A stretch of 64,000 bases of DNA from Humisphaera borealis. Its GTDB lineage: Bacteria > Planctomycetota > Phycisphaerae > Tepidisphaerales > Tepidisphaeraceae. Below are positions 1 through 56,920 of this stretch, one piece after another. The notes under the pieces are model-generated. The model saw only the letters and a list, made by a program, of their open reading frames with translations, searched no databases and was not told the origin of the DNA. The stretch is taken from NCBI RefSeq assembly GCF_015169395.1, contig NZ_CP063458.1, positions 6,901,954 to 6,965,953 on the forward strand, given 5' to 3'. The translations under genes were made by a program, and so were the position numbers. The first letter of the stretch is position 1. Each line of letters starts with the position of its first letter.

Positions 1-1076
1 TTGATCGTGTCGCCGGCCTTGACCACGTCCGACGGGTGGCGGATGCGTGTCCAGCTCATCTCGCTGACCGGCAGCAGGCCTTCGATGCCTTCTTCGACTT
101 CAATGAACGCGCCGAAGTTCTCCACCTTTGCTACCCGGCCGGTCACCAGCGTGCCGACGGCGTAGCGGTTCTCGATGCCGCCCCACGGGTCGGGCATCGC
201 CTGCTTCAGGCTCAGGCTGATCTTCCCGCTCGCCGCGTCCATCTTGATGATCTTGACGTCGACGAGATCGCCTTCCTTGACGAAGTCGGAAGGCTTAACG
301 CCCCGGCGATGGCTCATTTCCGAGACGTGGATCAGGCCGTCGGCGCCGCCGAGATCGACGAACGCACCGAAGTCCATCACGCTGCGAACCGTGCCCTGGC
401 GCATCTGGCCGGGTGCCAGCTCGGCCATAAGGACCTTTTTCTTCTCTTCCTTCTCGCGCTCGAGGATGTTCCGGCGGGACAGGACCAGGTTCTTGGCCGC
501 CCGCTCGAACTTGGTGACCTCCGCCTGCATCTTCTGGCCGAGGAAGACCGAGATGTCTTTATGGAAGTAAATGTCGATCTGGCCGGCGGGCATGAAGCCG
601 CGCATGCCTTTGACATCGATCTCGAGCCCGCCCTTGTTCATGCCGGTGACGGTGCCTTCGACGATCTGCCCGGCTTCAAGGTTCTCCCAGCTGACGTTGG
701 CGGCCGATGCCCCCTTGACGCTCAGGAGAATGACGCCTTCGTGGACGTCGTAACGTTCGACGAGGAAGTCCTGTTCCTGGCCGACCACCGGAGGCTCGGC
801 GAACTGGATGAGCGGGACGATGCCCTGGCTCTTGCCGCCGAACTCGACGAACGCTTCATCCTTGCTGATGGAGACGATCTTGCCGTGGCGGACCTGCTTG
901 CCGCCGATCTCGCGCGGTCCTTCGGTTGGTGTCGCCGCTGCCGGTTGGGGCTTGTCGAACCCGTAGAGCGAATCGACTTCGACACCGGTGAGAGCGGCGT
1001 TGAGCTCGGAATCGAGCGCGCTCTCGTCAGCACGAAATTTCTCCTTGAACGGGTCTGCTTTCAGGTCCTCTGCCAT
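1..1076 (-). CDS. rpsA: 30S ribosomal protein S1 (5' portion; gene continues beyond window start)
   Basis: Reverse-complement translation from ATG at 1076 gives MAEDLKADPFKEKFRADESALDSELNAALTGVEVDSLYGFDKP... followed by repeated S1 domains (e.g. GQIVEGTVTGMNKGGLEIDVKGMRGFMP, GTVRSVMDFGAFVDLGGADGLIHVSEMS, VTGRVAKVENFGAFIEVEEGIEGLLPVSEMS). GGAGTG RBS precedes the ATG. Absent from the ORF track because it runs off the window edge. Confidence 0.85.
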   Translation of the reverse strand, partial: MAEDLKADPFKEKFRADESALDSELNAALTGVEVDSLYGFDKPQPAAATPTEGPREIGGKQVRHGKIVSISKDEAFVEFGGKSQGIVPLIQFAEPPVVGQEQDFLVERYDVHEGVILLSVKGASAANVSWENLEAGQIVEGTVTGMNKGGLEIDVKGMRGFMPAGQIDIYFHKDISVFLGQKMQAEVTKFERAAKNLVLSRRNILEREKEEKKKVLMAELAPGQMRQGTVRSVMDFGAFVDLGGADGLIHVSEMSHRRGVKPSDFVKEGDLVDVKIIKMDAASGKISLSLKQAMPDPWGGIENRYAVGTLVTGRVAKVENFGAFIEVEEGIEGLLPVSEMSWTRIRHPSDVVKAGDTI

Positions 1077-1339
1077 GAACACTCCAAATTGGTTGCCGTT
1101 TGAGATAAGGGGGAAATGGTACTGCAGCGCAGGCGGCGGGGGAAGGGTTGGGAGGTCGGAAGTCGCTTCATTTGCCGATGCCTCGTCCGGCTGTCCCAGG
1201 GACGGCTGTCGTGGGCGTTTCCGCTTAGGATCGACCGTCAAGCACCAAGCGGAGCCGCTTCGCAGGATCGGGTCGGGGATACGATCGATCGGAAAAGATG
1301 GGGTCGCGTCTGCCGCCGCCGGCCCTACAATCCCGGCCT

Positions 1340-2866
1340 ATGCCCACCCCAACCGACCCCCGGCAGGCTTACTTGGAACTGGTCAAAGAGCTGCGTGAGA
1401 TCGCCGTCATTGGCTCCATCGCGTCGGTCCTCAGCTGGGACGAGCAAACCTACATGCCGCCCGGAGCGACGGATCATCGTGCCAACCAGGCGTCGCTGAT
1501 GGCGCGGATTTCGCACGAACGGTTCACTTCGCCGCGGCTGGGGGAATTGATCGCGGCGGTGGAGCAGTCTCCGCTGGTTGCCGACCCCCAGGGCGATATC
1601 GCGGCCAACATCCGCGAAACCCGTCGGGACTACGACCGCTCGACGAAGCTGCCTGCGTCTCTGGTTGAGGAGATGTCGCGCGTCGAGGTGCTGTCGCAGC
1701 AGGCTTGGAGCGACGCCAGGAAGAAGTCGGATTACGCCGAGTTCCGCCCCTGGCTCGACAAGGTGCTGCATCTCAAACGGCAGGAGTGTCAGTGCGTCGG
1801 CTTCAAGGATGACCCTTACGATGCGCTACTCGACCAGTATGAGCCGGGTGAGACGGCGACCAGTGTGCGGGCGACGTTCGAGGCGCTGCGCGGGCCACTG
1901 GTCGATCTGGTCGGCAAGATCGTCGGGTCGGGGCGCGTGGCGCCGCTGGAAATCCTTCAGCGGAACTATCCCGCGGCGGCCCAGGAAAAGTTTGCCAGGG
2001 AAGCAGCCCGGGCCGTCGGTTTTAACTTCAACGAAGGGCGGCTCGATACCTCGGTCCATCCGTTCTGCACGCACCTGGGTCCCGGCGATGTCCGCATGAC
2101 GACGCGCTACGACGAGGCCTATTTCGCCGACGCATTCTTCGGGGTTCTGCACGAGACGGGACACGCCCTCTACAACCAGGGCCTGCCGAAGGACCAGTAC
2201 GGTCTGCCCCGTGGCGATGACGTCTCGCTGGGCATCCACGAGAGCCAGAGCCGCATGTGGGAGAACCTCGTCGGCCGGAGCCGGGCGTTTTGGAAGCATT
2301 TCATGCCGCAGGCGAGGGCTGCATTCCCCCAGGCGCTGGCGGGTGTGACCGAGGATGCCTGGTACTTTGCGATCAACGACGTGCGGCCGAGCCTGATTCG
2401 GACCGAAAGCGACGAGACGACCTACAACCTGCACGTGCTGCTTCGGTTCGAGTTGGAGCGGGCGTTGCTGCGCAACGACCTCTCGACCAACGACCTGCCG
2501 GGCGCGTGGAACGAACGGATGGAAAAGTATCTGGGGATTGAACCGCCAGACGATGCCCGAGGTTGTCTGCAGGACATTCACTGGAGCGGCGGGGCGATTG
2601 GATACTTTCCCACGTATACGCTGGGCAACCTGTACGCGGCCCAGTTCTTCGAGCAGGCGAGGAAAGACGTCGGCGATCTGGAGGGGCAGTTTGCGCGGGG
2701 GGATTTCGCGCCATTGCTAGGCTGGTTGCGCGAGAAGATTCACAGCCAGGGGATGAAGTACACGCCGCGACAACTGGTTATGCGCATCACCGGACAGGAT
2801 CTGGCACCGACGGCGCTACTGGCACACCTGCGCCGCAAGGCAGGCGAGCTTTACGGCGTTTCCTGA
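1340..2866 (+). CDS. M32 carboxypeptidase (carboxypeptidase Taq family metallopeptidase)
   Basis: HEXXH motif HETGHALY, HESQSRMWEN and DIHWSGG..GYFPTYTLG motifs characteristic of peptidase M32. The N-terminus PTDPRQAYLELVKELREI aligns with family starts. Alternative upstream ATG at 1298. Confidence 0.8.
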   Translation: MPTPTDPRQAYLELVKELREIAVIGSIASVLSWDEQTYMPPGATDHRANQASLMARISHERFTSPRLGELIAAVEQSPLVADPQGDIAANIRETRRDYDRSTKLPASLVEEMSRVEVLSQQAWSDARKKSDYAEFRPWLDKVLHLKRQECQCVGFKDDPYDALLDQYEPGETATSVRATFEALRGPLVDLVGKIVGSGRVAPLEILQRNYPAAAQEKFAREAARAVGFNFNEGRLDTSVHPFCTHLGPGDVRMTTRYDEAYFADAFFGVLHETGHALYNQGLPKDQYGLPRGDDVSLGIHESQSRMWENLVGRSRAFWKHFMPQARAAFPQALAGVTEDAWYFAINDVRPSLIRTESDETTYNLHVLLRFELERALLRNDLSTNDLPGAWNERMEKYLGIEPPDDARGCLQDIHWSGGAIGYFPTYTLGNLYAAQFFEQARKDVGDLEGQFARGDFAPLLGWLREKIHSQGMKYTPRQLVMRITGQDLAPTALLAHLRRKAGELYGVS

Positions 2867-3083
2867 TCAGGTGCAGACGCTTGACGCCATCGGCTTCAAG
2901 CGACCCCAGCAGCACTAGGGGCTTTTGGAGTCGCAATCTGTGTCTGAAGACGACACGGATTCGCGACAAATTTGCGCTGGCGTCGTTTTTAGAAACTGAC
3001 GTGGTGGACATTTCGTACTACACTTCATCGCTGGGAGTGGTTCATTTCAACGGGACGGTCGCATTTCTTCTTGAGGTCGTAGT

Positions 3084-3881
3084 ATGCACAGTGGCACGCG
3101 CCAGCATTATCGTCGTTGCAATGCGTTTACACTCGTTGAGTTGTTGGTGGTGATTGGGATCATCGCGCTGCTGATCAGCATTTTGCTGCCGTCGCTGGCC
3201 AAGGCGCGGAATCAGGCGAACGCCGTCAAGTGCATCAGCAATCTTCGGCAGTTGGGGATGGCGTTTACGATGTACGCCAACGAGAACCGGCAGCGGCTTC
3301 CGTTTTCGTCATCCGGCGGCAACCCTTACAACGAAGACTGGATTTGGTGGCAGGAGACGGCGGTGGCATCGATCTCTGCGACAATTCCCGGACGGCCCGT
3401 TCCGGATCCGAAGCAGTCCTCTATTGCCCGTTATGTAGGTGGGTTCAATCCCGAGTTCTTCCGATGCCCGGGCGACGACACGGTCCAGCGCAAATCAACC
3501 ACGTCGGGTGGGTTCTATCGCTTTAGTTACAGCATGAATTACCGGTTGGAGAGTCTGATCAAGACCGTGCCGCCGATCGGCGCTATTCGCAATTCCTCGT
3601 CTAAGATCCTGCTGGTCGAGGAGGATGCCCTGACCATCAACGACGGGCGGTGGGTGCCGCCGCTCTACAACGCAAGCCAGGTTTGGGATACGGGATCGGG
3701 CAAGGGGGATTTGCTCGACACCCGCCACGATCGGCTGAAAGTGAATCCCGATAACGGGCAGTACGATCCGCTGCCAAACCCCGACTATCGCGGCAACGTC
3801 GCCTTCCTCGACGGGCACGCAGAGTTTATTTCTCGAAGCGTGGCGCACGACGAGAGAAGCGTGCGATGGGACAAAAACTAG
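3084..3881 (+). CDS. DUF1559 protein with prepilin-type N-terminal cleavage/methylation domain (planctomycete pseudopilin-like)
   Basis: N-terminus NAFTLVELLVVIGIIALLISILLPSL is a class III signal / N-methylation site. DUF1559-like body with C-terminal FLDGHAEF motif. Confidence 0.8.
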   Translation: MHSGTRQHYRRCNAFTLVELLVVIGIIALLISILLPSLAKARNQANAVKCISNLRQLGMAFTMYANENRQRLPFSSSGGNPYNEDWIWWQETAVASISATIPGRPVPDPKQSSIARYVGGFNPEFFRCPGDDTVQRKSTTSGGFYRFSYSMNYRLESLIKTVPPIGAIRNSSSKILLVEEDALTINDGRWVPPLYNASQVWDTGSGKGDLLDTRHDRLKVNPDNGQYDPLPNPDYRGNVAFLDGHAEFISRSVAHDERSVRWDKN

Positions 3882-4082: not shown

Positions 4083-4559
4083 TTAGCGACCACCCTTTTC
4101 GTATTCTTTCAGGAACCCTTCGAACTCGCGGAGGTGGCCTTCTTCGTCGGCGAGGATGGTGGTCACCATATCCGCTGTGACGTAGTCGGTTCCTTCACAC
4201 GTCTCGATGATCTTTCGGTAGTGGTTGATTGCGCCCTGTTCGGCTTCGATCACGCCTTTAATGACGTGCACAATGTCGGTCGGGTCTTCCGCCGGCTGGA
4301 GCGACTTCTGGTTGGGTCGGATCTCCATGCTGCCCGGGACGCGGCCGTACAATTCCTTGATCCGCTTGCCGAAAAGCTGGGCGTGACCCAGCTCCGCTGT
4401 AATGTCGGCGGCCAGGCTGTTCTTGATTTCCTTCGCCCGCACGCCGTCGGGATTGATGCTGTTGGCGATGTAGCTGGCCACCGTTTCGACCTCCATCCAG
4501 TAGGCCTGGATGAGCAGGTCGACGATCTCTTTACGCTTGGTTTCGTTGGGGATAATCAT
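4083..4559 (-). CDS. ferritin-like superfamily protein (Dps/bacterioferritin-like four-helix bundle)
   Basis: 158-aa ORF with coding-type GC3 and E/H-rich helices (EIVDLLIQAYWMEVE...ELGHAQLFGKRIKEL...EAEQGAINHYRKIIE). Confidence 0.55.
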   Translation of the reverse strand: MIIPNETKRKEIVDLLIQAYWMEVETVASYIANSINPDGVRAKEIKNSLAADITAELGHAQLFGKRIKELYGRVPGSMEIRPNQKSLQPAEDPTDIVHVIKGVIEAEQGAINHYRKIIETCEGTDYVTADMVTTILADEEGHLREFEGFLKEYEKGGR

Positions 4560-4678
4560 GGTTCTCTCCGTAGCCGTCGTTCACAACAACTGTGAACATC
4601 AGGCAACGACCTGATGATAGGCCGGGACCGCTAGCGGAGAACGAATCGAACATTGGTATAGGGAGCAGTTCGGCAGGA

Positions 4679-5350
4679 CTAGGGTCCGACCTGCAAGTTG
4701 GCCTCGGCCGCGCGGGCTCGGGCGGCGGCGAGTACAGCACGCACTTCGCCCAGGGCGACCGTGGTTTCCTCGCGGCTCTGCCGGGCGACGATCGTTCCTT
4801 TCAGGGTCGTCGTCCCCAAACGGTCGACCATGCCACTGCCGGAAACCGTTGTCGGTAGAACGCGAGCATTTTCGATCGTCAGAACGATTTGGTCACCCGA
4901 CCGCTCCACGCGAACCAAGCCGGTGCCGTGGTACTCGATCAGGCCGCTCGCGGGAGTGCCGTCGGTAAGGCCGACCGGCGTGACATACCAATGGATCGCC
5001 GCGTTCTGCGAGGCGTCCCGGTCCTGAGCCTTGATGGTGTGTCCCTGCTGCCAGAGCACGCGAACATGGAGCACGTGTTTTACCGGGGCACAATCGCCGC
5101 TCGCGCCATTGGTCTGGCAGGTGACGACCACATCGGTATCGCCGGCAGGCTGCATGTCAGCCACGCCGACGGGGAGCGACTGCTTGTACAACTCGCCGCT
5201 CCGGGCCGACGTAAGACGGAGGTTCGACTGCTGGCTCGCGTTGGAGCAGCCGGTCGCCAGTGCGAGAAGCGACAATCCGATGGCAAGCGTGGCGGCGTAG
5301 AGGGGTTTCAAGGGAGAATCCTTTGACTGCGTGATCCGAAAACGAAACAC
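4679..5350 (-). CDS. hypothetical lipoprotein
   Basis: Signal peptide with lipobox LLALATGCS. 223 aa, no recognisable catalytic motifs. Confidence 0.55.
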   Translation of the reverse strand: MFRFRITQSKDSPLKPLYAATLAIGLSLLALATGCSNASQQSNLRLTSARSGELYKQSLPVGVADMQPAGDTDVVVTCQTNGASGDCAPVKHVLHVRVLWQQGHTIKAQDRDASQNAAIHWYVTPVGLTDGTPASGLIEYHGTGLVRVERSGDQIVLTIENARVLPTTVSGSGMVDRLGTTTLKGTIVARQSREETTVALGEVRAVLAAARARAAEANLQVGP

Positions 5351-5497
5351 CCGCCCACATCGGTGAGCGGGTGATCTGTTTATCGGACGGTCGAAGGGAA
5401 CTTCGTGAGCCGCAGGCGGATGATCCGCGATCTCGAGACCGATCTCTTTAGGTTCAGATGTCAGTTTCCAGATCCTGCAATCGCCGCTCGAACGGCA

Positions 5498-6436
5498 TCA
5501 ACCCAGACCAAGCAACCCCAGGGAATCGCGTTCGACGATGCCGCGGAGCATTTCGCGAGGGACCACCGGCAGATTGGTGCCCTGGGCCATCTGGTTGATG
5601 CTGTAGAGCGCTTCGATGCACTCGGTCGCGTTGGTGTAGGGGAAGTCAGAGCCGAACAACAGCTTGTCGATCACACCCGCCTGATGGGCGCTGACCAACG
5701 CGTTGTAGGCCTGCCAGGGGCGCGACAGCAGGCCGCTGACGTCGGCGAAGACGTGGCGGTGCTTGCCGAGCATGACGATGCTCTCCTCGACCCACGGCTG
5801 ACCGATCTGAGCGATGATCATCCGAAGGTTGGGGAAAGACCGCGCCACTTCGTCGAGCAGGTAGGGCCTGCCGTACTCGAGCTTGCTTTGTTCGGTGAAC
5901 TGGCCGCTCGGATGGAACAGCACCGGCATACCGAGCCGCTCGCAGGCGGCGTAGACGTCCATCGCCCGGCTGTCGCTGGGATGGAAGTCCTGGTTCGCCG
6001 GCGAGATGGTGACCCCGCGAAGCTTCAGCTCTTCACGCGCGATCAGAACCTCATCGACGGCGGCATCGTCGGTGGGATCGATGCCGGCGAACCCGATGAG
6101 CTTCTGCGGAAACCGCCGGACGTACTCGGCAACGAAGCGATTGGGGATCTCCGCCTGCAGGTAACGGCTCTTGAAACCCAGGACGATCGATTTATCGACG
6201 CTCGTCGCCTCGGCCCAGTGGTGGTCGGGGTCGGCCGCCGGAATGCTCCGCCAGAGTCCCTTGCCGGGCACGGGCGCTACTGGCGCACCGGCCGCGGCAG
6301 GGCGCGCAGCAGCGGCGGCGGTCTGCCCGGCCGAGCCGGACATCCGCTTTCGGTTCGGCTTCATCGCTCCGCCAAGGTCCAACTGGCCGAGCTGGTCAGG
6401 CGATTCCCAGATATGCGTATGGCAATCAACGATCAT
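5498..6436 (-). CDS. amidohydrolase-2 family metal-dependent hydrolase (TIM barrel) with Ala/Pro-rich low-complexity insertion
   Basis: N-terminal MIVDCHTHIWESPDQ is typical of PF04909. HxH...D metal ligands; a ~45-aa A/P-rich insert follows the first strand. Confidence 0.7.
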   Translation of the reverse strand: MIVDCHTHIWESPDQLGQLDLGGAMKPNRKRMSGSAGQTAAAAARPAAAGAPVAPVPGKGLWRSIPAADPDHHWAEATSVDKSIVLGFKSRYLQAEIPNRFVAEYVRRFPQKLIGFAGIDPTDDAAVDEVLIAREELKLRGVTISPANQDFHPSDSRAMDVYAACERLGMPVLFHPSGQFTEQSKLEYGRPYLLDEVARSFPNLRMIIAQIGQPWVEESIVMLGKHRHVFADVSGLLSRPWQAYNALVSAHQAGVIDKLLFGSDFPYTNATECIEALYSINQMAQGTNLPVVPREMLRGIVERDSLGLLGLG

Positions 6437-6867
6437 GTGGATCGGCTCTCATCCCCTTTACTGCAAAGAAGGGGCACAGACTCGAAGACGCCGCCGTGCA
6501 ACAGCGGCGTCCCAACCTTGCCCTTGACTCGTCGCGTCCGTGACGAGAGGAAGTCTACGGGAATCCGTCCCGCGAGCAAAGTTATCGGACACGTTACGTC
6601 GATCGAGCTCAGGAGGTTCGTTCCTGCCTCTTATCGGACTGCCGACCCCAACAAGACGAAAGAATCGGATGAAGCAGAGGTTAGGACGCTCTTTGCTGAG
6701 ATATCACACGGCTGGAGACACGTCGATTTATTAAGTCTCCATGACCGATCGCAATGAAAATGATGTGGATTGCCCAGAAGAATTGCGCCGTTGACCAGCG
6801 CACGCGGCCACACCGCGGCACACTCCGCCACAAACGTCTGCCTTATCTGCCGGTGCCGATGTCGTCA

Positions 6868-7302
6868 TCAGGCCCGACCGTAAATGTACTCGCTCAGGAA
6901 CGAGATCTGGGCCTGCTGCTGCGAAGCGAACTGGGCGCTGACATCCCCGATGGAAATGAGTCCGATCAGTTCATCCTGCTCGCAGACGGGGATGTGGCGG
7001 ACGCGGCGTTCCTTCATGACGGCGGCTACATCTTCGATGTCTTCGTCGGCACCACAGCAGATGACTTCTGTCGTCATGACATCCCCGACGAGCATTTCCC
7101 GCGGGCCGCGTTCCATCCCGACGACCCGCTGGAGCACGTCGCGCTCGGTAAACATGCCCGCGACCGAACCGCCGTCCATCACGACCAGTGCGCCGATCTT
7201 GTTTCGATTCATTTTATCGACGGCTTCCATGACGGTCGCGCCCGGGGCGACGGTCATCACTTTGGAACCCTTGGCCGCCAGAACATCGCGTACGGTAGGC
7301 AT
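6868..7302 (-). CDS. CBS-domain pair protein
   Basis: Two CBS motifs (VMTVAPGATVMEAVDKM..., VGDVMTTEVICCGADEDIEDVAAVMKERRVRHIPV). Start at internal ATG preceded by AAGGAG RBS. The longer track ORF (to 7488) lacks an RBS. Confidence 0.75.
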   Translation of the reverse strand: MPTVRDVLAAKGSKVMTVAPGATVMEAVDKMNRNKIGALVVMDGGSVAGMFTERDVLQRVVGMERGPREMLVGDVMTTEVICCGADEDIEDVAAVMKERRVRHIPVCEQDELIGLISIGDVSAQFASQQQAQISFLSEYIYGRA

Positions 7303-7548
7303 GACATGCTCCTTTCGAGAGCGGTCGGGCGATCGTGAGTGCCGGTTCGCGCTGCCGGATCGCTCGTGGTTGAGCCCGGGCGGGTGAGGTCGCCGACAGG
7401 CCCTGTATTCCCTGACAGAAGTGAACAGCCTCGTGGCGAACTTCGCCGTCGGCCGGTCGGGGCAGTATGCGCAGGTCGCGCGACGCAATTCAACATTGTG
7501 AAAAAATGAACTTGGAAGTGTCGTGCCGGGTCAGGAAGGGCGTTATTG

Positions 7549-10244: not shown

Positions 10245-10272
10245 GGTTCGTTTAAATGCTTCGAGGTTCGAT

Positions 10273-10461
10273 CCCCTCTCCCCTGTACTCGGGGGAGAGG
10301 GCGAGGGTGAGGGGCCGAACGTCGGGCGGCGTTGCTCGCACTTCAACGTCGTTGAGGAACCCACGACGGAGTCGCAGGGCTCTCATCAAACCGCGCGAGG
10401 AACGGGCCCTCACGTTCGGCCCCTCACCCCATCCCTCTCCCCCGAGTACAGGGGAGAGGGG
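10273..10461. repeat. family A GC-rich palindromic element (two inverted ~50-bp copies, 89-bp loop)
   Basis: CCCCTCTCCCCTGTACTCGGGGGAGAGGGCGAGGGTGAGGGGCCGAACGT at ~10273-10322 and its near-perfect reverse complement at ~10412-10461. Each arm is itself palindromic (CCCTCTCCCC/GGGGAGAGGG). Confidence 0.8.
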
Positions 10462-10462
10462 G

Positions 10463-11479
10463 TTATACCTCCACCACTGCCTTGATCACGCCCGTCTCCG
10501 GCTTGGTGTACGACTCGAACACCTCTGTCATGTCTTCGAACTTCGTCCGGTGCGTCACCCACGGCGTGGTGTCGATCTTGCCGGTTTCAATCAGCCCGAT
10601 GATCCGCGTGAAATCCGCCGGCAGCGCGTTGCGGCTGCACAGCAGCGTCCCTTCCGGGCGGTGAAAGATGGGGTGAATAAACGTCACTTCCTTGGTCGTG
10701 ATACCGACGTACACCAGCCGGCCGGTGGGGGCGATGTAGCCGAACGCGTTGGACATCGACCCGTTGTGGCCCGTTGCGTCAATAACGACATCGGGCAGCG
10801 CGCCGTCGGTCACCCGCCGCAGGTCGTCGACGACTTTGTCATTCAGCACGATCGTTTCGTCGACGCCCATCTTCTCTTTGCAGAACGCGAGGCGCTGGGC
10901 GTTGACGTCGAGCACGATCACCTTGGCCCCGGTGAGCTTGGCGAACACGATGCTCGACAGGCCGATCGGACCGGCGCCGATGACCAGGCAGTTCTCGCCG
11001 GCCGTCAACGCCGAACGGTTGACGGCGTGGCAACCGATCGCGAGCGTCTCGACGAGCGCCAGTTGTTCGAACGAGAGCTTCGTGCTGACGTGCAGCTTTC
11101 GGGCCGGCAGGACGAAGCGGTCGCGCAGGCCGCCGTCGGTCATGACGCCGAGCACCTTCAGGTTGGCGCAGCAGTTGGTCGAGCCCTTCTTGCAGGCGTG
11201 GCAGGTGCCGCAGTTCATGTAGGGTTCGACGGCGCAGCGGTCGCCGGGCTTGACGTTTGTCACGCCGCTGCCGACGGCAACGACCTCCACGCCCAGTTCG
11301 TGACCGGGGATGCGTGGGTAGCTGAAGAACGGCATCTTGCCGAGATAGCCGGAGAGGTCGGTCCCGCAGATGCCGACGCGATGGACACGCACCACCGCCT
11401 CGCCCGGCCCGGGGGCGGCGGGTTCGTCGATGTCGATGCGTTCGAAATGGCCGGGGCTCTTAAGAAGGATTGCTTTCAT
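10463..11479 (-). CDS. zinc-dependent alcohol dehydrogenase (MDR family, threonine/sorbitol dehydrogenase-like)
   Basis: GHEXXGXXXXXGXXV-type motif (PGHELGVEVVAVGSGV), structural zinc Cys cluster (CGTCHACKKGSTNCC), Rossmann GAGPIGL. Confidence 0.85.
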   Translation of the reverse strand: MKAILLKSPGHFERIDIDEPAAPGPGEAVVRVHRVGICGTDLSGYLGKMPFFSYPRIPGHELGVEVVAVGSGVTNVKPGDRCAVEPYMNCGTCHACKKGSTNCCANLKVLGVMTDGGLRDRFVLPARKLHVSTKLSFEQLALVETLAIGCHAVNRSALTAGENCLVIGAGPIGLSSIVFAKLTGAKVIVLDVNAQRLAFCKEKMGVDETIVLNDKVVDDLRRVTDGALPDVVIDATGHNGSMSNAFGYIAPTGRLVYVGITTKEVTFIHPIFHRPEGTLLCSRNALPADFTRIIGLIETGKIDTTPWVTHRTKFEDMTEVFESYTKPETGVIKAVVEV

Positions 11480-12500: not shown

Positions 12501-12562
12501 ATCGAACAGATGACTTTGAGCGAGTTGCCGCATACAAAGTAACGCTTGGAGCTGCTTTGCCG

Positions 12563-12654
12563 GGTGCCATGGGCTGACGTACTCGTCTACCCGTGGCGGC
12601 ATGCCTGCCGCTACGCACTGCTACGGGAAGCGGAGTACCGCAGCCCATGGCACC
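12563..12654. repeat. family B palindromic element (GGTGCCATGGGCTG...CAGCCCATGGCACC), copy 1
   Basis: 92-bp imperfect hairpin between the histidine-kinase and response-regulator genes. Confidence 0.8.
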
Positions 12655-12709
12655 CAGAACGCAGGGCGCACAAAATGCTTCAGGCGTTCATCGTTACTCG
12701 TTAGCACCC

Positions 12710-14095
12710 ATGTCAGACACCGAGATCATTCCGTCCACCATCCTTATCGTCGATGACGAACAGGAACACGCCCAGGTCATGTGCGAAGCCCTGCAGCGCC
12801 AGGGCCATAAGTGTGACGTCGTCTTCAGCCTGCCCGAAGCGCGGCAGAAGCTCGATCGGCGGAAGTACGACTTGGTCGTCACCGACCTGATGATGGAAGG
12901 CCGCAAAGACGGCCTGGAGGTGCTCGCGGCGGCCAAAAAGCAGACACCGCCACCGCCTGTCATCCTCGTCACAGCCCACGGCGCGGTCCGCACTTATAAA
13001 GAGGCGATGCAGCTCGGGGCATTCGATTTCATCGAAAAGCCACTCGACCTGGAAGACTTCCGGGCCCAGGTCAATCGCGCCGCGCGGCAGGCGGCGCTAC
13101 TGAAGCAGAACCAGGTGCTTCAGGAGCAGCTTTCCGAAGTCTCCGGCGAGCGTGCCGGGTTTGACGCGATCATCGGCACCAGCCAGGCGATGCAGAGCGT
13201 CATTCGCACCGCCCGGCAGGTGGCACAGAGCGATATCCCGGTGCTAATCCTTGGCGAAAGCGGCACCGGCAAGGAACTGGTCGCCAGGGCAATCCACCAG
13301 GCATCCAAACGCCGTAAGAACCGGCTTGTCATCCTGAACTGCGCCGGCTTCGCCCCGACCATTCTCGAAGACGAGCTGTTCGGCCACGTCAAAGGCGCGT
13401 TCACCGATGCCCGCACCGACCGCGAAGGCCGCTTCGAACACGCCGATGGCGGCACACTGTTTCTCGACGAAATCGGCGACATGCCCGCCGACATGCAGGC
13501 GAAGCTGCTGCGGGCGCTCGAGTACGGCGAAGTCGTGCGGCTCGGTTCGAACGACCCGATCCAGGTCGATGTACGGATCGTCAGTGCGACAAACAAGAAC
13601 CTCCTGCAGATGACGCAGGAGAAGACCTTCCGCGAGGACCTGTATTACCGCCTGAACGGCATCAGCCTGATGATCCCGCCGTTGCGCGAACGGCGGGAGG
13701 ACATACCGCTGCTGATTCACTACTTCCTGCAGCAGGCCGCCGAGCGATCGGGCCGGGAAATCGACGGGCTCGAGCCAGACGCCCAGCAGTACCTGATGAG
13801 CTACGGTTGGCCTGGCAACGTGCGCGAGTTGCGGAAGGTGATCGAACGGATGGTGGTCCTGAGCAGCGGCAACAAGCTGACGGCCGACTCGCTTCCGCCG
13901 GAAATCAAACCCGCCACCCTTACAGAGCCGATCGGCGGCATGGGCAACCTGTTCGGCATCAGCTTGGAGCAGGCGGAAGTGGAGTTGATCCGCAACACGC
14001 TCAAGCACACCAACGGCAACCGCGAACAGACGGCGAAGATCCTGGGCATCGGGGAACGGACGTTGTACCGGAAGATCAAGGATTACAACCTGTGA
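12710..14095 (+). CDS. sigma-54-dependent response regulator (NtrC family: REC + AAA+ sigma54-interaction + Fis-type HTH)
   Basis: REC domain (ILIVDDE...DLVVTDLMM), Walker A GESGTGKE, GAFTDA ESGGTLFLDEIGDM, C-terminal HTH NREQTAKILGIGERTLYRKIK. Confidence 0.9.
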   Translation: MSDTEIIPSTILIVDDEQEHAQVMCEALQRQGHKCDVVFSLPEARQKLDRRKYDLVVTDLMMEGRKDGLEVLAAAKKQTPPPPVILVTAHGAVRTYKEAMQLGAFDFIEKPLDLEDFRAQVNRAARQAALLKQNQVLQEQLSEVSGERAGFDAIIGTSQAMQSVIRTARQVAQSDIPVLILGESGTGKELVARAIHQASKRRKNRLVILNCAGFAPTILEDELFGHVKGAFTDARTDREGRFEHADGGTLFLDEIGDMPADMQAKLLRALEYGEVVRLGSNDPIQVDVRIVSATNKNLLQMTQEKTFREDLYYRLNGISLMIPPLRERREDIPLLIHYFLQQAAERSGREIDGLEPDAQQYLMSYGWPGNVRELRKVIERMVVLSSGNKLTADSLPPEIKPATLTEPIGGMGNLFGISLEQAEVELIRNTLKHTNGNREQTAKILGIGERTLYRKIKDYNL

Positions 14096-14364
14096 TGGTA
14101 AGCATGATCCCACAGTCGTGCGTCTGTGACGCTGTCCGTGACACGGGTTTCCAACCCGTGCGAGCGACGTTCGGAGTAGAGACTCTCTTGATCCTCAATC
14201 TCTTTAATCTGAGTGCGGGGAGATCACCACGGAGGTACGGAGGCACGGGGAGATTCTCTGAGAACGATTTGAGGATGAGCGAAACCTGGCGTCGTGGACA
14301 TCGCTTGCACGGGTTGGAAACCCGTGTCACGGACAGCGTTACAGATCGCGTTGCGATGGTAAGC
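14094..14364. mobile_element. MITE-like element (family E) with 10-bp direct repeats GATGGTAAGC and ~46-bp imperfect inverted repeats
   Basis: Direct repeats at 14094-14103 (includes the TGA of the response-regulator gene) and 14355-14364. Inverted repeats ~14124-14170 and ~14298-14346 with core GTGACACGGGTTTCCAACCCGTGC. No ORF inside. Confidence 0.7.
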
Positions 14365-14378
14365 GGGGAGGACTGGCG

Positions 14379-14873
14379 ATGAGTCGTCACCCCCCCCGCA
14401 TCGGTCACGGCTACGACCTCCACCGTCTGCAAGCTGGTGGGCGATTGATGCTGGCGGGCATTGAAGTCGCCCGCGATCTTTCGCCTGTCGCCCATTCCGA
14501 CGGCGATGTCGTTCTGCACGCCGTTGTCGATGCCCTTTGCGGGGCGCTCGGGCTCGGCGACATCGGCGAGCACTTTGCCAACACTGACCCGCGGTGGAAG
14601 GACGCGCCCAGCCGGGTGTTTGTCGATGAGATCTGGGGCAAGGTCACGGCGGCCGGGTATCGGCTGGGGAATGCCGATGTCACGATCCTTGCAGAAAAAC
14701 CGAAGCTCAAGGCGTTCAAGCCCGCCATGCGGCAGGCGCTGGCCGAGATGCTGGGGGCGACGGTCGAGCAGATCAATGTGAAGGCGGGAACGAACGAGGG
14801 GTGCGACGCGATCGGGCGTGGGGAGGCGATCGCGGCGCATGCGGTTGTATTGCTTTTCGAAAGGGAGTCTTGA
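14379..14873 (+). CDS. ispF: 2-C-methyl-D-erythritol 2,4-cyclodiphosphate synthase
   Basis: IGHGYDLHRL...SDGDVVLHAVVDALCGA...GDIGEHF motifs diagnostic of IspF. GGGGAGG RBS. Confidence 0.9.
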   Translation: MSRHPPRIGHGYDLHRLQAGGRLMLAGIEVARDLSPVAHSDGDVVLHAVVDALCGALGLGDIGEHFANTDPRWKDAPSRVFVDEIWGKVTAAGYRLGNADVTILAEKPKLKAFKPAMRQALAEMLGATVEQINVKAGTNEGCDAIGRGEAIAAHAVVLLFERES

Positions 14874-15079
14874 TGGAACGTGCTCGCCAGCAACCCGAGG
14901 CAGTCCAAGCGACTACGACCGGGCGTCCGTTGTCATTGGAGGAATCGCGGCAAGTCGAAACCGTGCTGATACGTGAGGCGCTCGCGCGAACGGGTGGCGA
15001 CTTTCAGCAGATGTCGAGGCTGCTTGGAATCAGTCAGAAAGTGCTGCGAGCAAAGGTTTCCGAGTTGGGTCTGTCCTGA
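14873..15079 (+). CDS. Fis-family helix-turn-helix DNA-binding protein (68 aa)
   Basis: ATG overlaps ispF stop (TGATG). GGGAG RBS. C-terminal Fis-type HTH ARTGGDFQQMSRLLGISQKVLRAKVSELGL. Confidence 0.6.
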   Translation: MERARQQPEAVQATTTGRPLSLEESRQVETVLIREALARTGGDFQQMSRLLGISQKVLRAKVSELGLS

Positions 15080-16823: not shown

Positions 16824-16834
16824 GCCGGAGCAAT

Positions 16835-16949
16835 GACGAATGGCGAAGATCGAATGGCGAATGAATCCCTAAGGACCAATAAACAAAGTCGGAAACGGCT
16901 TCGTCATTGGGATTCATTCGTCATTCGCATTTCGTGACTCGTCATTGCC
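16835..16949. repeat. family D palindromic element (CGAATGGCGAATGAAT core), copy 1, immediately after cysS
   Basis: GACGAATGGCGAAGATCGAATGGCGAATGAATCCC ... GGGATTCATTCGTCATTCGCATTTCGTGACTCGTCATTGCC. Confidence 0.75.
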
Positions 16950-17441: not shown

Positions 17442-17541
17442 CGCCGGTGTCTGAGCGTACTCGCGAAGACCCGGATTCTTTCTGCGGATGACGCAAAGAA
17501 TCCGGGTCTTGGCGAATACCTCAGACACCGGCGTTTTTTTG
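17442..17541 (+). terminator. rho-independent terminator (long nested hairpin + T7 run)
   Basis: CGCCGGTGTCTGAG...CTCAGACACCGGCG outer stem with inner GACCCGGATTCTTT...AAAGAATCCGGGTC hairpin, followed by TTTTTTT. Confidence 0.75.
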
Positions 17542-20425: not shown

Positions 20426-21358
20426 ATGGCACGTAACATCTTTGTCACCGGAGGCAGCGGGTTCGTGGGAACCGCCGTCGTCGATGAGCTCGTCTCGCGC
20501 GACTATTCCGTGCAGGCGCTGGTTCGCAAAGGGTCCCTCGATAGCCGAGGCGGCAAGGTGACGTCATTTGTTGGCGACCTGTTCGACCCCAAGTCACTCG
20601 CGGCCGGCATGGCCGGGTGTGATGCGGTCATTCACTTGGTCGGCATCATCATGGAGCAGCCTTCTAAGGGGGTGACGTTCGAGCGGATGCACTTCGAGGG
20701 GACCAGGTCGGTCGTCGATGCGACGAAGGCCGCCGGCATCCGGCGATACGTGCACATGTCGGCGCTGGGCGTTCGGCCGAATGCTGTGAGCGCCTACCAC
20801 AAGACCAAGTGGAAAGCCGAGGAGTACGTCCGCGGCAGCGGGCTCGACGCGACGATTCTCCGCCCCAGCATGATTCACGGTCCCAAGGGCGAGTTCATGA
20901 AGATGGAAGCCGCCTGGGCGAGGAAACAGGCGATGCCGTTCCTGTTCATGCCCTATTTCGGCAACGGCGTCCTCGGCCTTGGCGGGAGCGGCCAGTTGCA
21001 GCCGGTCTACGTTGCCGACGTCGCCCGCGCCTTCGTCGATGCACTCGATAAGCCCAACACCATCGGCCAAACCTACGAACTAGGCGGCCCCGACCGCATG
21101 GACTGGCCGACTATGCACAAGACCGTCGCCGAGATCCTGACGGGTAAGAATCGCCTGACGATGCCAATCCCGTCGTGGTACGCCAAGGTGCTCGCGACGG
21201 TGGTGCCCGGATCGCTGTTACCGTTCAACAAGGCGCAGGTGCAGATGGCCGAGGAAGACAACGTCTGCGACACAAAGCCGGCCGAAGAAGCATTCGGCTG
21301 GAAGACGCGCGGGCTGCGGGAGACGCTTTCGCAGTACAAGGGCCAGATGACGGAATGA
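20426..21358 (+). CDS. NAD(P)-binding SDR-family epimerase/dehydratase-like protein (NmrA/NDUFA9-like)
   Basis: ARNIFVTGGSGFVGTAVVDEL Rossmann motif. GAGGAG RBS 6 nt upstream of the ATG. Confidence 0.8.
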   Translation: MARNIFVTGGSGFVGTAVVDELVSRDYSVQALVRKGSLDSRGGKVTSFVGDLFDPKSLAAGMAGCDAVIHLVGIIMEQPSKGVTFERMHFEGTRSVVDATKAAGIRRYVHMSALGVRPNAVSAYHKTKWKAEEYVRGSGLDATILRPSMIHGPKGEFMKMEAAWARKQAMPFLFMPYFGNGVLGLGGSGQLQPVYVADVARAFVDALDKPNTIGQTYELGGPDRMDWPTMHKTVAEILTGKNRLTMPIPSWYAKVLATVVPGSLLPFNKAQVQMAEEDNVCDTKPAEEAFGWKTRGLRETLSQYKGQMTE

Positions 21359-21367
21359 CGAATCACT

Positions 21368-21493
21368 GAATTCGAATGGCGAATGAATGACCAATCTCGA
21401 AGCATGAAATGTCCGCCAACGTCCGCTGCAATTGGACATTGGGTCTTGGAACTTCATTCGCCATTCGATTTTCGTCATTCGTCATTCGTCATT
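21368..21493. repeat. family D palindromic element, copy 2, immediately after the epimerase gene
   Basis: GAATTCGAATGGCGAATGAATGACC ... GGAACTTCATTCGCCATTCGATTTTCGTCATTCGTCATTCGTCATT, including a 3x GTCATTC heptamer. Confidence 0.75.
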
Positions 21494-28014: not shown

Positions 28015-28099
28015 GTAGGGTCCGCCTTGGCGGACGCGAAACGCTCATTCCTGCAAACCGCATTAGAAGTCCGATCACGTCCGCCAAGGCGGACCCTAC
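28015..28099. repeat. intercistronic hairpin (22-bp stem GTAGGGTCCGCCTTGGCGGACG / CGTCCGCCAAGGCGGACCCTAC, 39-nt loop)
   Basis: Perfect 22-bp inverted repeat between the FucU-like and AKR genes. Confidence 0.7.
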
Positions 28100-29050: not shown

Positions 29051-29123
29051 GGGACGCGAAGGAAGAAGTTGGGCCACGAATCTCACGAAGCAAAACACGA
29101 ATGAAGAGCATGGCGGTCGGCGC

Positions 29124-29300
29124 CGTCAGTGACACGGGCATCCTGCCCGTGCTGAGTGCGTGACGGTCGAGTTGTATCAATACCAATCTCTTTGCTTTGT
29201 CAGTGCATGGACTCGCAAACGGCCAAGAATCTGTTGCGCTATCCCCAACTTTTCACTCGGACGTCGCACGCACGGGCAGGATGCCCGTGTCACTAACAGA
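29124..29300. repeat. family E palindromic element, second copy
   Basis: Arms CGTCAGTGACACGGGCATCCTGCCCGTGC (~29124-29152) and GCACGGGCAGGATGCCCGTGTCACTAAC (~29270-29297) share the GTGACACGGG-N-TCC-N-CCCGTGC signature with the 14.1-kb element. Sits between convergent genes. Confidence 0.7.
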
Positions 29301-29347
29301 GTCGATCGCAATCTCTCATTCGTGCTTCGTTTCGTGAGATTCGTGGC

Positions 29348-31186
29348 TCACTCTCCGATTTGCTTCCGTAACTGCGCGATCTGCTCGTCGATCATCTTCA
29401 CCGACTCCGGCGAAAACGTTTTGACCTGCTCGCGCATCGCCTCCATCCGCTCGATCGCCTGTTCCATCTGATCGCGCATCAGCTTCCTTGACTCGGCGTG
29501 TAGCTGCTCGGCCTCCCGTGTCGCCTCGACTTCTTCCGGGGTTGGCGGGGCGGGTGGGGGTTCGGGGGCGTCGGTCTTGCCGTCGTACAGTTCGACCGAG
29601 TGCGGATCGACCGCGCGGAATCGCTCCGTCGCGGCGTCGCGGGCTTCACGGTCGGTGTCGATCGCGGCGTGCAGGCCGGCTTTCCATTCATCGAGCGACT
29701 TCTGCATCTCCGGCGACAAGCCGGGTTCCTTCGGCGATTGCCAGTAAGGCAGGCCGTCGTACGACAAATACGGCGTCTTGGGGTTCGTGCCCAGGTAGCT
29801 CCGCTGCACTTCCACCGGCAGCGATCGGCCACGCTGCTTCACCAGTTCGTGCACCGGATCGGGCGTGGGGTAGCTGCCGTCAACAACAGCGTACAGCGCA
29901 GCCTCGGCGGCGGGTTTCAGGGGGCCTTCCGTGTCCCAGATCGGCAGCACGAACTCGAAGAACCGCTGCCATTGCGCCGGCGTCGCGTTCTCAGGCACGC
30001 GCAGGTAGTGCCGCAGCGCCGCGGCCCGCGAGGCATCCGTTTTCAGGCTTCGGTAGACGTCGAAGCGATGGCGGAACTCCGTTTCGTCCTTCGGCCAGCC
30101 GACGTAGAACGACTTGTCCAGTTCCGGCAGCAGCGACGGACGCTCGACGGCGGCGTCGTCGATGAAATGCAGCAGCGTCGGCGCATCGTAGTGAAAGCCG
30201 ATGCCGAACTGCCGCTGCGCCAGCAGCATCGCGAACGCCAGCACCGGGCCGGTGAGGTAGAGCATCCGGTAAAGGATGATCTGCCCCATGATCGGGTGCT
30301 GCGGGTAGTTCCGCTGGAAGATCAGGTTCACGCCGTGCAGGCACCAGCAGGCGTACTCGAACTCGCCGCGACGGCAGGCGAACTCGGCGGCGTCGAGCAG
30401 CGGTTTCAGGCAGACGCCGTCGCCGAGGCCGACCTCGAAGACGATCGGCCTGGGGCAGCCGACGTCGAAGATGAATCGCTCGGCGGCGCGGATGGCGGTG
30501 TTGCGAAGGCCGGGGTCGCCTTCGCACAGCAGCTTGCCGATCAGGTCGGCAACGGCCCGCTGATACGCGGGCTCGGCGTTCTTCGTGCTCTCCAGCAGTG
30601 GCGGCAGCAGGCGGGCGGAGGTGGCGTTGATGTTCGTCCACTGCTCGAAGTGCCGTGCGAACGCGAGCCGTCGGTCGGCGTCGGTCTCGTGCAGAATGCG
30701 GTAGATCAGGTGCTCGGTGTCGGGGTGGTCACCCTCCGTGGCCCGGCGGCGGTCGTTGGGGTGTCGCGGGCGGGGGACTTCCGTTTCGGGGTCCGGCGGT
30801 GGCGACCAGAGCCGGCGTTCCAGGCGCGAGTTCGTGCCGCAGGTGCGGCAGTGGATGGCAGTGGCGTCGTCTTCATAGTCCAGGCCGTCGCCGCAGCCCG
30901 GACATGACGCCCGGCCGACGATGCCTTCGCGGTATTGCTTCGATCGCACCCAGGCGGCGCGGGTCAGGTTCTGTGCCTCCGCAGACTCGGCATCCACGTA
31001 CAGCCGCAGGGGGGCGTCAGCGACTTCGGGCTCTACCTTCCGCAGCCGGCGTTCGAGGACGGCTTTCTGCCCGCAGAATCCGCAGGCCAGTTGGGCGACA
31101 TCGCCGTCGAGCGGCAGCGGTGCGCCGCAGCCGGGGCAAAGGCCGCGTTTTTGCTTGAACAGGATGCTGGGGAGGATCGCGGTCAT
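29348..31186 (-). CDS. hypothetical protein with two N-terminal zinc ribbons and a large alpha-helical body (612 aa)
   Basis: CPGCGAPL...CGFCG and CPGCGDGL...CRTCG ribbons. C-terminal coiled coil. No other recognisable domain. Confidence 0.6.
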   Translation of the reverse strand: MTAILPSILFKQKRGLCPGCGAPLPLDGDVAQLACGFCGQKAVLERRLRKVEPEVADAPLRLYVDAESAEAQNLTRAAWVRSKQYREGIVGRASCPGCGDGLDYEDDATAIHCRTCGTNSRLERRLWSPPPDPETEVPRPRHPNDRRRATEGDHPDTEHLIYRILHETDADRRLAFARHFEQWTNINATSARLLPPLLESTKNAEPAYQRAVADLIGKLLCEGDPGLRNTAIRAAERFIFDVGCPRPIVFEVGLGDGVCLKPLLDAAEFACRRGEFEYACWCLHGVNLIFQRNYPQHPIMGQIILYRMLYLTGPVLAFAMLLAQRQFGIGFHYDAPTLLHFIDDAAVERPSLLPELDKSFYVGWPKDETEFRHRFDVYRSLKTDASRAAALRHYLRVPENATPAQWQRFFEFVLPIWDTEGPLKPAAEAALYAVVDGSYPTPDPVHELVKQRGRSLPVEVQRSYLGTNPKTPYLSYDGLPYWQSPKEPGLSPEMQKSLDEWKAGLHAAIDTDREARDAATERFRAVDPHSVELYDGKTDAPEPPPAPPTPEEVEATREAEQLHAESRKLMRDQMEQAIERMEAMREQVKTFSPESVKMIDEQIAQLRKQIGE

Positions 31187-31244: not shown

Positions 31245-31272
31245 CAGGCGTTGCCCCCGCTCAGTTCGTCCT

Positions 31273-31418
31273 CAACTGTCATCCTGAGGTACTCCGAAGG
31301 ACCTGGTATCCGAGCCGAGTAAGTATCGAACGTCGAAAACCGAACGTGTGCGGTTTGGGGTTCGATGGCGGTCTGCTTGGGATAGAAGGTCTTTCGGAGT
31401 ACCTCAGGATGACAACTG
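31273..31418. repeat. family F MITE-like element with 31-bp terminal inverted repeats
   Basis: CAACTGTCATCCTGAGGTACTCCGAAGGACC ... GGTCTTTCGGAGTACCTCAGGATGACAACTG flanking ~85 bp. Related outer arms surround the family C copy at 45.7 kb. Confidence 0.75.
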
Positions 31419-31433
31419 CGGTCCCCGGGTCGA

Positions 31434-35846: not shown

Positions 35847-35873
35847 TCGCTGTTTCGAAACGGCCTTCATCTG

Positions 35874-35965
35874 GGTGCCATGGGCTGGCGTACTCGCCTG
35901 CCCGTGGCGGCGACATCGCAGTCATGCGACGCCACGGGCAGCGGAGTACCGTAGCCCATGCCACC
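35874..35965. repeat. family B palindromic element, copy 2
   Basis: ~85% identical to the 12563-12654 copy. Lies between the PSD1 and DUF1501 genes and contributes an in-frame ATG to the track ORF. Confidence 0.8.
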
Positions 35966-36001
35966 CAAACTCGGTTCTTTCGCCTACGTCTGAGGAATAC
36001 A

Positions 36002-41776: not shown

Positions 41777-41885
41777 GGTTGATAGACCTTTCGTTTGAGC
41801 CCGCGATTCTACGGGGCGGCGGGGGGCTGTCTACGAAGGGCGGCAAAGGATCACGAAGATCCCCGACCTGTCAGGAGAACCTTTC

Positions 41886-42009
41886 AAGGAGCCGCGCACG
41901 AAGTGTACTCACGGAGAAAGCGGGAACTGTGACGTTCCGTGGTCCATTCCGACGTTTCGGGGTCCATTCCCGCTTACTCCGTGAGTACACTTCGTGCGCG
42001 GCTCCTCAG
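41886..42009. repeat. family C palindromic element (AGGAGCCGCGCACGAAGTGTACTCACGGAGAAAGCGGGAA arms), copy 1
   Basis: ~40-bp inverted arms with ~45-bp loop that contains a GGTCCATTCC direct repeat. Confidence 0.8.
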
Positions 42010-42063
42010 AAGGTCGTACTTCCGATCAAACACTTCGTGCTCCTTCGTAAACTGCCTCCTACA

Positions 42064-45715: not shown

Positions 45716-45900
45716 TCAACTGTCATCCTTTGGAGCACTTCAGAGCGTGTGACTTCTTGAGGAGCCGCGCACGGAGTGCACTCACGGAGTAAGCGGGAAT
45801 GACCCCGAACCGTCACGGTTCCCGCTTGCTGTCACGGTTCCCGCTTACTCCGTGAGTGCACTCCGTGCGCGGCTCCTCAAAGTCACGTACCCTCAGGATG
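45716..45900. repeat. family C palindromic element, copy 2, nested inside family-F-like outer arms
   Basis: Core ~45757-45880 has arms ~90% identical to copy 1. Outer CAACTGTCATCCT...CCTCAGGATGGG arms resemble family F termini. Confidence 0.75.
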
Positions 45901-54332: not shown

Positions 54333-54409
54333 GGGGAACGCCGAGCTCCAGCCCGGCTCATCAGTCTCCGCAAGTCCGGTAAGGAGCCGAGCCGGAGCTC
54401 GGCGTTCCC
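54333..54409. repeat. hairpin element after trpF (26-bp arms GGGGAACGCCGAGCTCCAGCCCGGCTC / GAGCCGAGCCGGAGCTCGGCGTTCCC)
   Basis: Imperfect inverted repeat read by eye. Confidence 0.6.
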
Positions 54410-56832: not shown

Positions 56833-56920
56833 GTTAGCCGCGACGCGCAGCGGAGCGTGTCTACGGCGCGGGGAACACGTTCGAGCCTTACGAAACGCTC
56901 CGCCCCGCGTCGCGGCTAAC
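56833..56920. repeat. hairpin element between VOC and FAD-oxidoreductase genes
   Basis: GTTAGCCGCGACGCGCAGCGGAGCGT ... ACGCTCCGCCCCGCGTCGCGGCTAAC. Confidence 0.6.

Follow-up and report, generated by a model that had tools for sequence, protein, structure and literature searches.

The closest described relatives of the sequence considered here are the GTAG-tagged repetitive extragenic palindromes (REPs), which occur in Planctomycetes and Verrucomicrobia, are associated with genes for REP-associated tyrosine transposases (RAYTs), and form 'HH' dimers with tags outward and spacers of mostly 20–100 bp, with occasional copies inside genes (Di Nocera, De Gregorio & Rocco 2013, PMC3733652). Their degenerate tags include GTRG and GTGG, the latter in Opitutus, and GTGA is not explicitly listed (PMC3733652). 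The doublets of Pseudomonas and Enterobacteria known as REPINs are about 70–110 nt long and have a spacer that is conserved among copies (Bertels & Rainey 2011, PMC3116915). The present analysis concerns a 251-bp non-coding palindromic element that separates the gene for a sigma-54-dependent response regulator from ispF in a 64-kb stretch of the Humisphaera borealis genome, referred to below as the window. H. borealis is a member of the Phycisphaerae, order Tepidisphaerales. An original prediction, made from the letters alone, had taken the element for a miniature inverted-repeat transposable element (MITE) with a 10-bp target-site duplication. Bacterial MITEs derived from DDE transposases (Correia/NEMIS, RUP, ERIC) have inverted repeats directly bordered by a duplication whose length is the same in all copies, together with a matching insertion sequence (IS). 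IS608 and ISDra2, of the IS200/IS605 group, have two different, non-inverted subterminal hairpins and their own transposase.

The element is probably a head-to-head REP doublet, REPIN-like in construction, that was mobilized by a RAYT into a tight gene junction and forms a stable hairpin within an operon. It is of the REP/REPIN type rather than a DDE-type MITE: about 89 other doublets have no flanking repeat above chance, and its inverted repeat is set back from the direct repeats by unmatched stretches, 19 nt long on the left and 9 nt long on the right. The layout is given in Table 1. The direct repeat, GATGGTAAGC, is present as two exact copies with no third copy in the window (0.09 expected) and extends to 13 nt when one mismatch is allowed (TGTGATGGTAAGC and TGCGATGGTAAGC, the left copy then starting at 14091). 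Its left copy overlaps the stop codon of the regulator (TGA, 14093–14095), and its right copy ends 14 nt upstream of the ATG of ispF, with the ribosome-binding site GGGGAGGA in between. The two inverted arms are 48 nt each, 94% complementary, and differ at 3 of 48 positions; when compared by eye, they share an identical stretch of 33 nt. Most of the physical description in the original prediction is borne out by these observations: a unique pair of 10-bp direct repeats, one at the regulator stop and the other close to ispF, encloses a non-coding, non-autonomous palindrome of 251 bp.

Each arm is one REP unit, consisting of an unpaired 4-nt tag (GTGA, with GTGG, GTAG, and GTAC in relatives), a hairpin with an 8-bp stem and a 3-nt loop, and a flank of about 10 nt. 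The hairpin has these dimensions in both arms and falls within the range used for REP stem-loops (stem of 5–13 bp, loop of 2–20 nt). A region of 285 nt that includes the element has a predicted folding energy of −151 kcal/mol, which compared with shuffled sequences corresponds to z = −9.6 for the plus strand and z = −10.2 for the minus strand. The fold of the sense strand is better than that of the antisense strand by about 20 kcal/mol, and two of the three mismatches between the arms are compatible with G-U pairing on the sense strand, again by eye. These two features of the modeled fold give a weak hint of constraint at the level of RNA.

An exact scan of one-genome-per-species contigs with the 19-mer hairpin gave at least 120 loci, nearly all in metagenome-assembled genomes (MAGs) of Tepidisphaeraceae/Phycisphaerae; among the matches listed, single MAGs often contributed many loci. 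Among the 140 hairpins examined, the tags included GTGG (62), GTGA (28), GTAG (18), and GTAC (12). In the loci fetched for comparison (designated L), a search for the arm with up to 3 mismatches found 233 arms. Neighboring arms no more than 600 nt apart (100 pairs) are arranged with the tags outward in 77 pairs, inward in 8, and in tandem in 15. Their spacing spans 21–537 nt, and values of 33, about 63–84, and 166–187 nt are frequent; the window pair has its tags outward and a spacing of 166 nt. Gene calls assign about 72% of the sequence to coding regions, yet 177 of 226 arms (78%) are intergenic. The genes on either side are tandem in 60 cases, convergent in 44, and divergent in 22, and the window copy lies between tandem genes. 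The tag, hairpin, and inner flank of the window arms recur in many Tepidisphaeraceae loci, the inner flank being conserved over about 10 nt. The stem covaries with retention of the hairpin, as CACGGGCA/TGCCCGTG in a second window doublet at 29133 and as CATGGG/CCCATG, CACCGG/CCGGTG, and TGCAGGCT/AGCCTGCA in the fetched loci. The complete 48-nt arm has no further copy in the window, where a sister subfamily is detected only with a looser pattern; two doublets of the arm's REP type are present there. The outer stem of the arm is copy-specific. A metagenome scan with the outer-arm pattern GCTGTCCGTGACACGGGTT gave only two matches, another REP copy in L128 and a site in L129 that has no hairpin context. 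Tandem sub-repeats, CTGTCCGTGA(C/A), lie directly outside the REP hairpin in L128 (60–130), which suggests that iterated short units make up the outer part of the arm. A REP doublet of 105 nt (35 codons) is situated in frame in an aminotransferase open reading frame (ORF) of L015 (5434–5538 within 4699–6030), and by hand translation all six frames of the REP hairpin are free of stop codons.

The arms are linked to a transposase through the relatives of H. borealis. RAYTs were sought with an E. coli RAYT (YafM) probe, used as bait only, and the matches were confirmed with Pfam and NCBIfam; an ORF in L036, for example, scores 81.2 bits against the 80-bit NCBIfam cut-off for 'REP-associated tyrosine transposase.' L059 contains a DinG-like helicase ORF of 949 aa (619–3468, minus strand) with an in-frame Y1_Tnp domain, flanked on either side by REP doublets whose type (GTGACACGGGTTTCCAACCCGTGC) is exactly that of the window. 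In L132, from a Humisphaera sp. MAG (301–3072), GTGG-CACGGGTTTTCAACCCGTG-CAAGCGGCG and its inverse enclose the RAYT domain of DinG, and these enclosing arms have the same layout of tag, hairpin, and inner flank as the window arms. A purH ORF in L111 (AICAR transformylase/IMP cyclohydrolase; 4176–7469, minus strand, 1097 aa) has two in-frame RAYT-like insertions, one of which is bracketed by REP arms at 6026 and 6563. A RAYT flanked by the same REPs, the arrangement that defines a REP-RAYT-REP unit (REPtron), was therefore found in these three relatives. The fusion of RAYT with DinG is present in 118 of the best 120 DinG homologues (P0241–P0360), and 99 of these have all of the HUH, Y-x3-N/Q-P, Walker A, and DEAH patterns. 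The DinG of H. borealis is reported to have a transposase-like domain to which the closest structure is E. coli TnpA (PDB 4ER8; PMC11981726); the DinG survey that reports the domain does not note its link to REPs (PMC11981726). Because the same arm layout brackets RAYT in the relatives, the sequences indicate that the window arms and the RAYT-bracketing repeats stand in the relation of a non-autonomous element and its autonomous partner. In the case of H. borealis, such a RAYT link is drawn from the relatives and from PMC11981726. In the literature searched, no description was found of the REP family of these arms in Tepidisphaeraceae/Phycisphaerae, nor of any REP-RAYT system in the Phycisphaerae; the loci described here document one, with its RAYT embedded in DinG. 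As a separate observation, peptides encoded by REPs (HGL[EK]TR[VA]T, TGFQPV) flank the RAYT domain in 39 of the 120 DinG homologues, and P0262, which is without RAYT, yet keeps a REP-doublet peptide at that site in DinG.

Comparison of the regulator–ispF junction in relatives bears on whether the element was inserted. In L003 (regulator 90% identical) and L130 (92% identical), the site is empty and the regulator stop overlaps the start of ispF, as TGATG and TAATG, respectively. Conceptual excision of the element from the window does produce a tight junction. In L002, L005, and L126, the two genes are separated by 54–91 nt of unrelated sequence. The junction in L004 contains a different palindrome of 100 nt (3405–3505), whose family, GTTAGCCGCGACGCG...CGCGTCGCGGCTAAC, is also represented in the window at 56833–56920. 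In L127 a REP-related motif follows immediately after the regulator stop, before the end of the contig. In L131, from a Humisphaera sp. MAG (82%), the regulator and ispF are separated by a complete unit made up of a REP dimer, a RAYT, and a REP (1660–2575); the REPs of this unit are from another family, GTAG-GGGCATACGGCCGTATGCCC, so its insertion was independent. The differences in presence and absence at this junction are of the kind expected for mobile REPINs. Since close relatives have empty sites and others have different REP-type elements, the comparison indicates that the 251-bp element is a lineage-specific insertion of a non-autonomous element relative to those close relatives, and the same comparison indicates that the junction has been colonized independently by several REP-type elements. 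For the latter reason, it is a natural place to study target choice. For the further suggestion of a recent insertion there is at best weak support: 3 of the 48 arm positions differ, and the center matches nothing else that was fetched.

The element shares much with the GTAG-tagged REP superfamily, including the GC-rich 8-bp stem and 3-nt loop with an unpaired 4-nt tag, the predominance of tags-outward dimers, variable spacers of which some have complementary ends, a mostly intergenic location between tandem or convergent genes with an occasional in-frame copy within a gene, the link to RAYTs, and occurrence in the Planctomycetes–Verrucomicrobia–Chlamydiae (PVC) superphylum. It differs in that the window copy has the tag GTGA and a spacing of 166 nt from start to start (127 nt between arms) instead of 20–100 bp, and in that the arm has additional conserved flanks, a copy-specific outer stem, and a 10-bp flanking repeat. 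Like REPINs, it comprises two inverted REPs in one long hairpin, is non-autonomous, has a cognate Y1/HUH transposase associated with the same REPs, and shows presence and absence among relatives. In contrast with REPINs, its center is unique among everything fetched, and the RAYT of the relatives is an in-frame domain of DinG, not a free-standing protein. With DDE-derived MITEs it has in common a size of about 250 bp, inverted repeats, a non-coding and intergenic character, likely co-transcription, a possible influence on the expression of neighbors, and, at this single copy, flanking repeats; in contrast, its family lacks duplications, its arms are set back unequally, and the enzyme concerned is a tyrosine (HUH) transposase. 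The Y1 HUH transposase, the recognition of hairpins, and the lack of target duplication in the family overall are also properties of IS200/IS605 elements, from which the window element differs in being a symmetric doublet without a gene.

The direct repeat favors a rival reading in line with the original prediction, in which the element is a true MITE that a DDE transposase moved, the target-site duplication comes from fill-in of a staggered 10-bp cut at GATGGTAAGC, and the REP-like hairpins merely lie within terminal inverted repeats. The repeat is perfect over 10 nt (13 nt with one mismatch) and unique in the window, and a word of at least 10 nt common to both 46-nt flanks was found in only about 0.1% of control pairings, a value that becomes about 1.5% after correction for the approximately 15 window doublets and corresponds to about 0.09 cases expected over the approximately 90 doublets examined. 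Excision with one copy of the repeat gives a plausible junction, relatives show empty sites, and 251 bp is a typical size for a MITE. Against this, the termini are unequal and unmatched, and the arms are tied to RAYT, not to a DDE enzyme. In 74 other doublets of the family, the longest word common to the flanks follows the control distribution (mostly 4–6 nt), and the 14 other palindromic doublets in the window have no common flank word longer than 6 nt. The multicopy 200-nt subfamily in SMAG_U12713, which shares its inner sequence, ends sharply at GTGGCAC and is free of duplications. The 64-kb window contains neither a RAYT nor a DinG gene, and no DDE-type IS with matching ends turned up in the window or the fetched loci in searches limited to tblastn with RAYT and DinG probes, none of which was aimed at DDE transposases. 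Two exceptions among the family doublets were rejected as target duplications: the 22-nt repeat of L078 reflects duplication of the entire unit in tandem, and the 11 nt common to both flanks in L015 stem from an 'EIYE' coding motif that is repeated in the aminotransferase ORF. Since the other doublets show no flanking repeat above control, the 10-bp repeat is not a signature of the family, and it is no evidence for a DDE-type MITE mechanism, which we consider improbable. The repeat is unlikely to be due to chance and is probably a real but one-off duplication, produced for example during the repair of this particular insertion. What had appeared to be a MITE with a target duplication thereby becomes an ordinary REP doublet.

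Two other origins were considered for the element. It could be a decayed REPtron that has lost its transposase gene by internal deletion, instead of a doublet that arrived ready-made. The REPtron of L131 lies at exactly this junction, the outward-tag layout is common to the window arms and to the arms that bracket RAYT in L132 and L059, and the minus strand of the center reads QIVLRESPRASVPPW, which faintly resembles the RAYT N-terminal motif IRQGAYLPHW. However, L131 has REPs from another family, inserted independently, 1172 of 3000 dinucleotide shuffles (39%) score at least as well as the center with a hidden Markov model of the RAYT N terminus, the tblastn matches are driven by the peptides that the REPs themselves encode, and the direct repeat is left unexplained here also. 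The identification of the center as a RAYT remnant was rejected on the basis of the shuffle test and the source of the tblastn matches, and an origin by decay is given little credence. Still less credible, and very improbable in our view, is a cis-regulatory RNA for ispF (an attenuator, terminator, or processing site) that evolved locally and is flanked by a coincidental repeat. The very strong predicted fold of the sense strand, the G-U compatible arm mismatches, and the position inside an apparent operon would be in keeping with such an RNA, but the element is absent from the closest relatives, the arms are dispersed at well over a hundred unrelated loci, and the center is conserved nowhere. 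A scan of positions 13500–15000 against Rfam with E values up to 10 gave no match for the element and a single sub-threshold chance match inside ispF, and no promoter-like or terminator-like site was found.

In the preferred explanation, that of a RAYT-mobilized REP doublet, a cognate RAYT acting in trans would have placed the doublet at a regulator–ispF junction that was ancestrally tight. This RAYT would be of the IS200/IS605 kind, a Y1/HUH transposase that acts on single-stranded DNA, embedded in frame in the dinG gene of Tepidisphaeraceae, and the direct repeat would be a one-off by-product of insertion or repair, or else a coincidence. Because the two genes abut in relatives, the doublet is, on sequence grounds, almost certainly transcribed within the regulator–ispF operon, where it would fold into an RNA or DNA hairpin of very high stability. 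REP hairpins elsewhere are known to impede 3' exonucleases, to cause partial termination, or to recruit RNases. By analogy, the hairpin would probably alter the ratio of regulator to ispF expression by serving as a barrier to 3' exonucleases, by partial termination, or by processing. Several points weigh against this explanation. The 10-bp repeat is not expected from transposition of the IS200/RAYT type, as enzymes of the IS200/IS605 type are not known to make target duplications, and its control frequency of about 0.1% per locus makes chance a difficult explanation. The tag is GTGA and not the canonical GTAG, and the arm spacing of 166 nt is near the long end of the range. The REP flanks of the RAYT of H. 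borealis itself and the copy number in its genome are both drawn from relatives and one paper, and the effect on ispF expression is one that we purely infer; no promoter-like or terminator-like site was found. Finally, the 127-nt center had no match in the loci fetched up to the blastn comparison or elsewhere in the window; spread as a unit should leave siblings with the same spacer, so the unmatched center weighs against a REPIN, for which a shared spacer is characteristic and was not seen for this element among the fetched loci and the window.

A broader reading, which we regard as unlikely when its three parts are taken jointly, would combine a DinG-coupled RAYT, translatable repeats, and the ispF copy as a bridge. 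(i) A RAYT permanently built into DinG might constitute a helicase-coupled HUH nuclease that follows the logic of Helitrons and relaxases. (ii) REP units free of stop codons in all six frames might be inserted in frame and translated without harm in DinG, PurH, and the aminotransferase. (iii) The 87-codon expansion of an 8-codon bridging mini-ORF might keep the regulator stop and the ispF start coupled, and the 10-bp duplication might mark a route of insertion other than canonical IS200-type transposition. The more unusual features of this system lie outside the 251-bp element itself: the RAYT domain within DinG, the REP insertions that keep the reading frame, and the junction that has been colonized repeatedly.

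Table 1. Features of the regulator–ispF region and palindromic doublets of the window
Feature	Position	Strand	Remarks
Sigma-54-dependent response regulator (NtrC type)	12710–14095	+	Pfam Response_reg, Sigma54_activat, HTH_8
Left direct repeat	14094–14103		GATGGTAAGC
Open frame through the element	14095–14382	+	95 codons; ATG overlaps regulator stop (TGATG), TGA overlaps ispF start (ATGA)
Left unmatched stretch	14104–14122		19 nt; no right counterpart of equal length; no match in fetched loci
Left arm	14123–14170	+	One REP unit: outer stem, tag, hairpin, inner flank
Left arm, outer stem	14123–14137		Copy-specific
Left arm, tag	14138–14141		GTGA
Left arm, hairpin	14142–14160		CACGGGTT-TCC-AACCCGTG
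Left arm, inner flank	14161–14170		CGAGCGACGT
Stretch between direct repeats	14104–14354		251 nt
Center	14171–14297		127 nt; partly self-complementary, e.g. about 14187–14200 with 14268–14283
Right arm	14298–14345	−	REP unit, inverted; hairpin 14308–14326, tag as TCAC 14327–14330
Right unmatched stretch	14346–14354		9 nt
Right direct repeat	14355–14364		GATGGTAAGC, followed by ribosome-binding site GGGGAGGA
ispF, 2-C-methyl-D-erythritol 2,4-cyclodiphosphate synthase	14379–14873	+	Pfam YgbB, E = 4.5e-58
Second doublet of the arm's REP type	29110–29312		Stem variant GTGA-CACGGGCA-TCC-TGCCCGTG, compensatory TT/AA to CA/TG
Intergenic palindromic doublet	10263–10471		
Intergenic palindromic doublet	12562–12655		
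Intergenic palindromic doublet	16830–16948		
Intergenic palindromic doublet	17457–17519		
Intergenic palindromic doublet	21353–21487		
Intergenic palindromic doublet	28015–28099		GTAG-tagged
Intergenic palindromic doublet	29070–29350		
Intergenic palindromic doublet	31270–31421		
Intergenic palindromic doublet	35872–35967		
Intergenic palindromic doublet	41879–42014		
Intergenic palindromic doublet	45757–45880		
Intergenic palindromic doublet	54334–54409		
Intergenic palindromic doublet	56833–56920		

The window contains about 14 palindromic doublets from at least six families in 64 kb, all 14 of them intergenic, and for this reason the 251-bp element is ordinary for the H. borealis genome. 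The same density argues that such inserts should not be taken as special regulatory devices without expression data. The families include one that is rich in 'ACGAATG' and an element of 125–135 nt with two copies, at 41879 and 45757. The second doublet of the arm's REP type is nested in another palindrome (29070–29350) and has an arm spacing of about 140–160 nt, depending on the measure, similar to the 166 nt of the 251-bp element. It has no flanking direct repeat, and its alignment with the window element is confined to the arms, the centers not aligning.

The product of the regulator gene is 461 aa long and is 100% identical to 'sigma-54-dependent transcriptional regulator [Humisphaera borealis]' (P0001). 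The gene order histidine kinase, regulator, ispF, small HTH_8 protein, and cysS is kept in relatives. The insert together with one copy of the direct repeat amounts to 261 nt, or 87 codons, and is free of stop codons in the bridging frame, so a 95-codon ORF extends from the regulator stop to the ispF start. Before the insertion, this frame would have been an 8-codon mini-ORF, MVSGEDWR. The bridging ORF is probably not a gene; an open frame of this kind is expected by chance at a level somewhere between 1% and 10%, and it is mentioned as a curiosity on which no claim is based.

A Logan contig that carries this ispF (L001, run SRR12905382) starts inside the right arm, at its positions 1–45. The break was considered as a sign of multiple copies, and this was rejected because the identical 33-nt stretch in the arms would alone break a contig at the k of 31 that we assume for the Logan assembly. 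Long inverted repeats of this type break assemblies made with short k and also give rise to spurious ORFs and fused gene calls. In L131 the REP-RAYT-REP unit has been fused with ispF in the gene call, giving a single 'RAYT-IspF' product of 458 aa.

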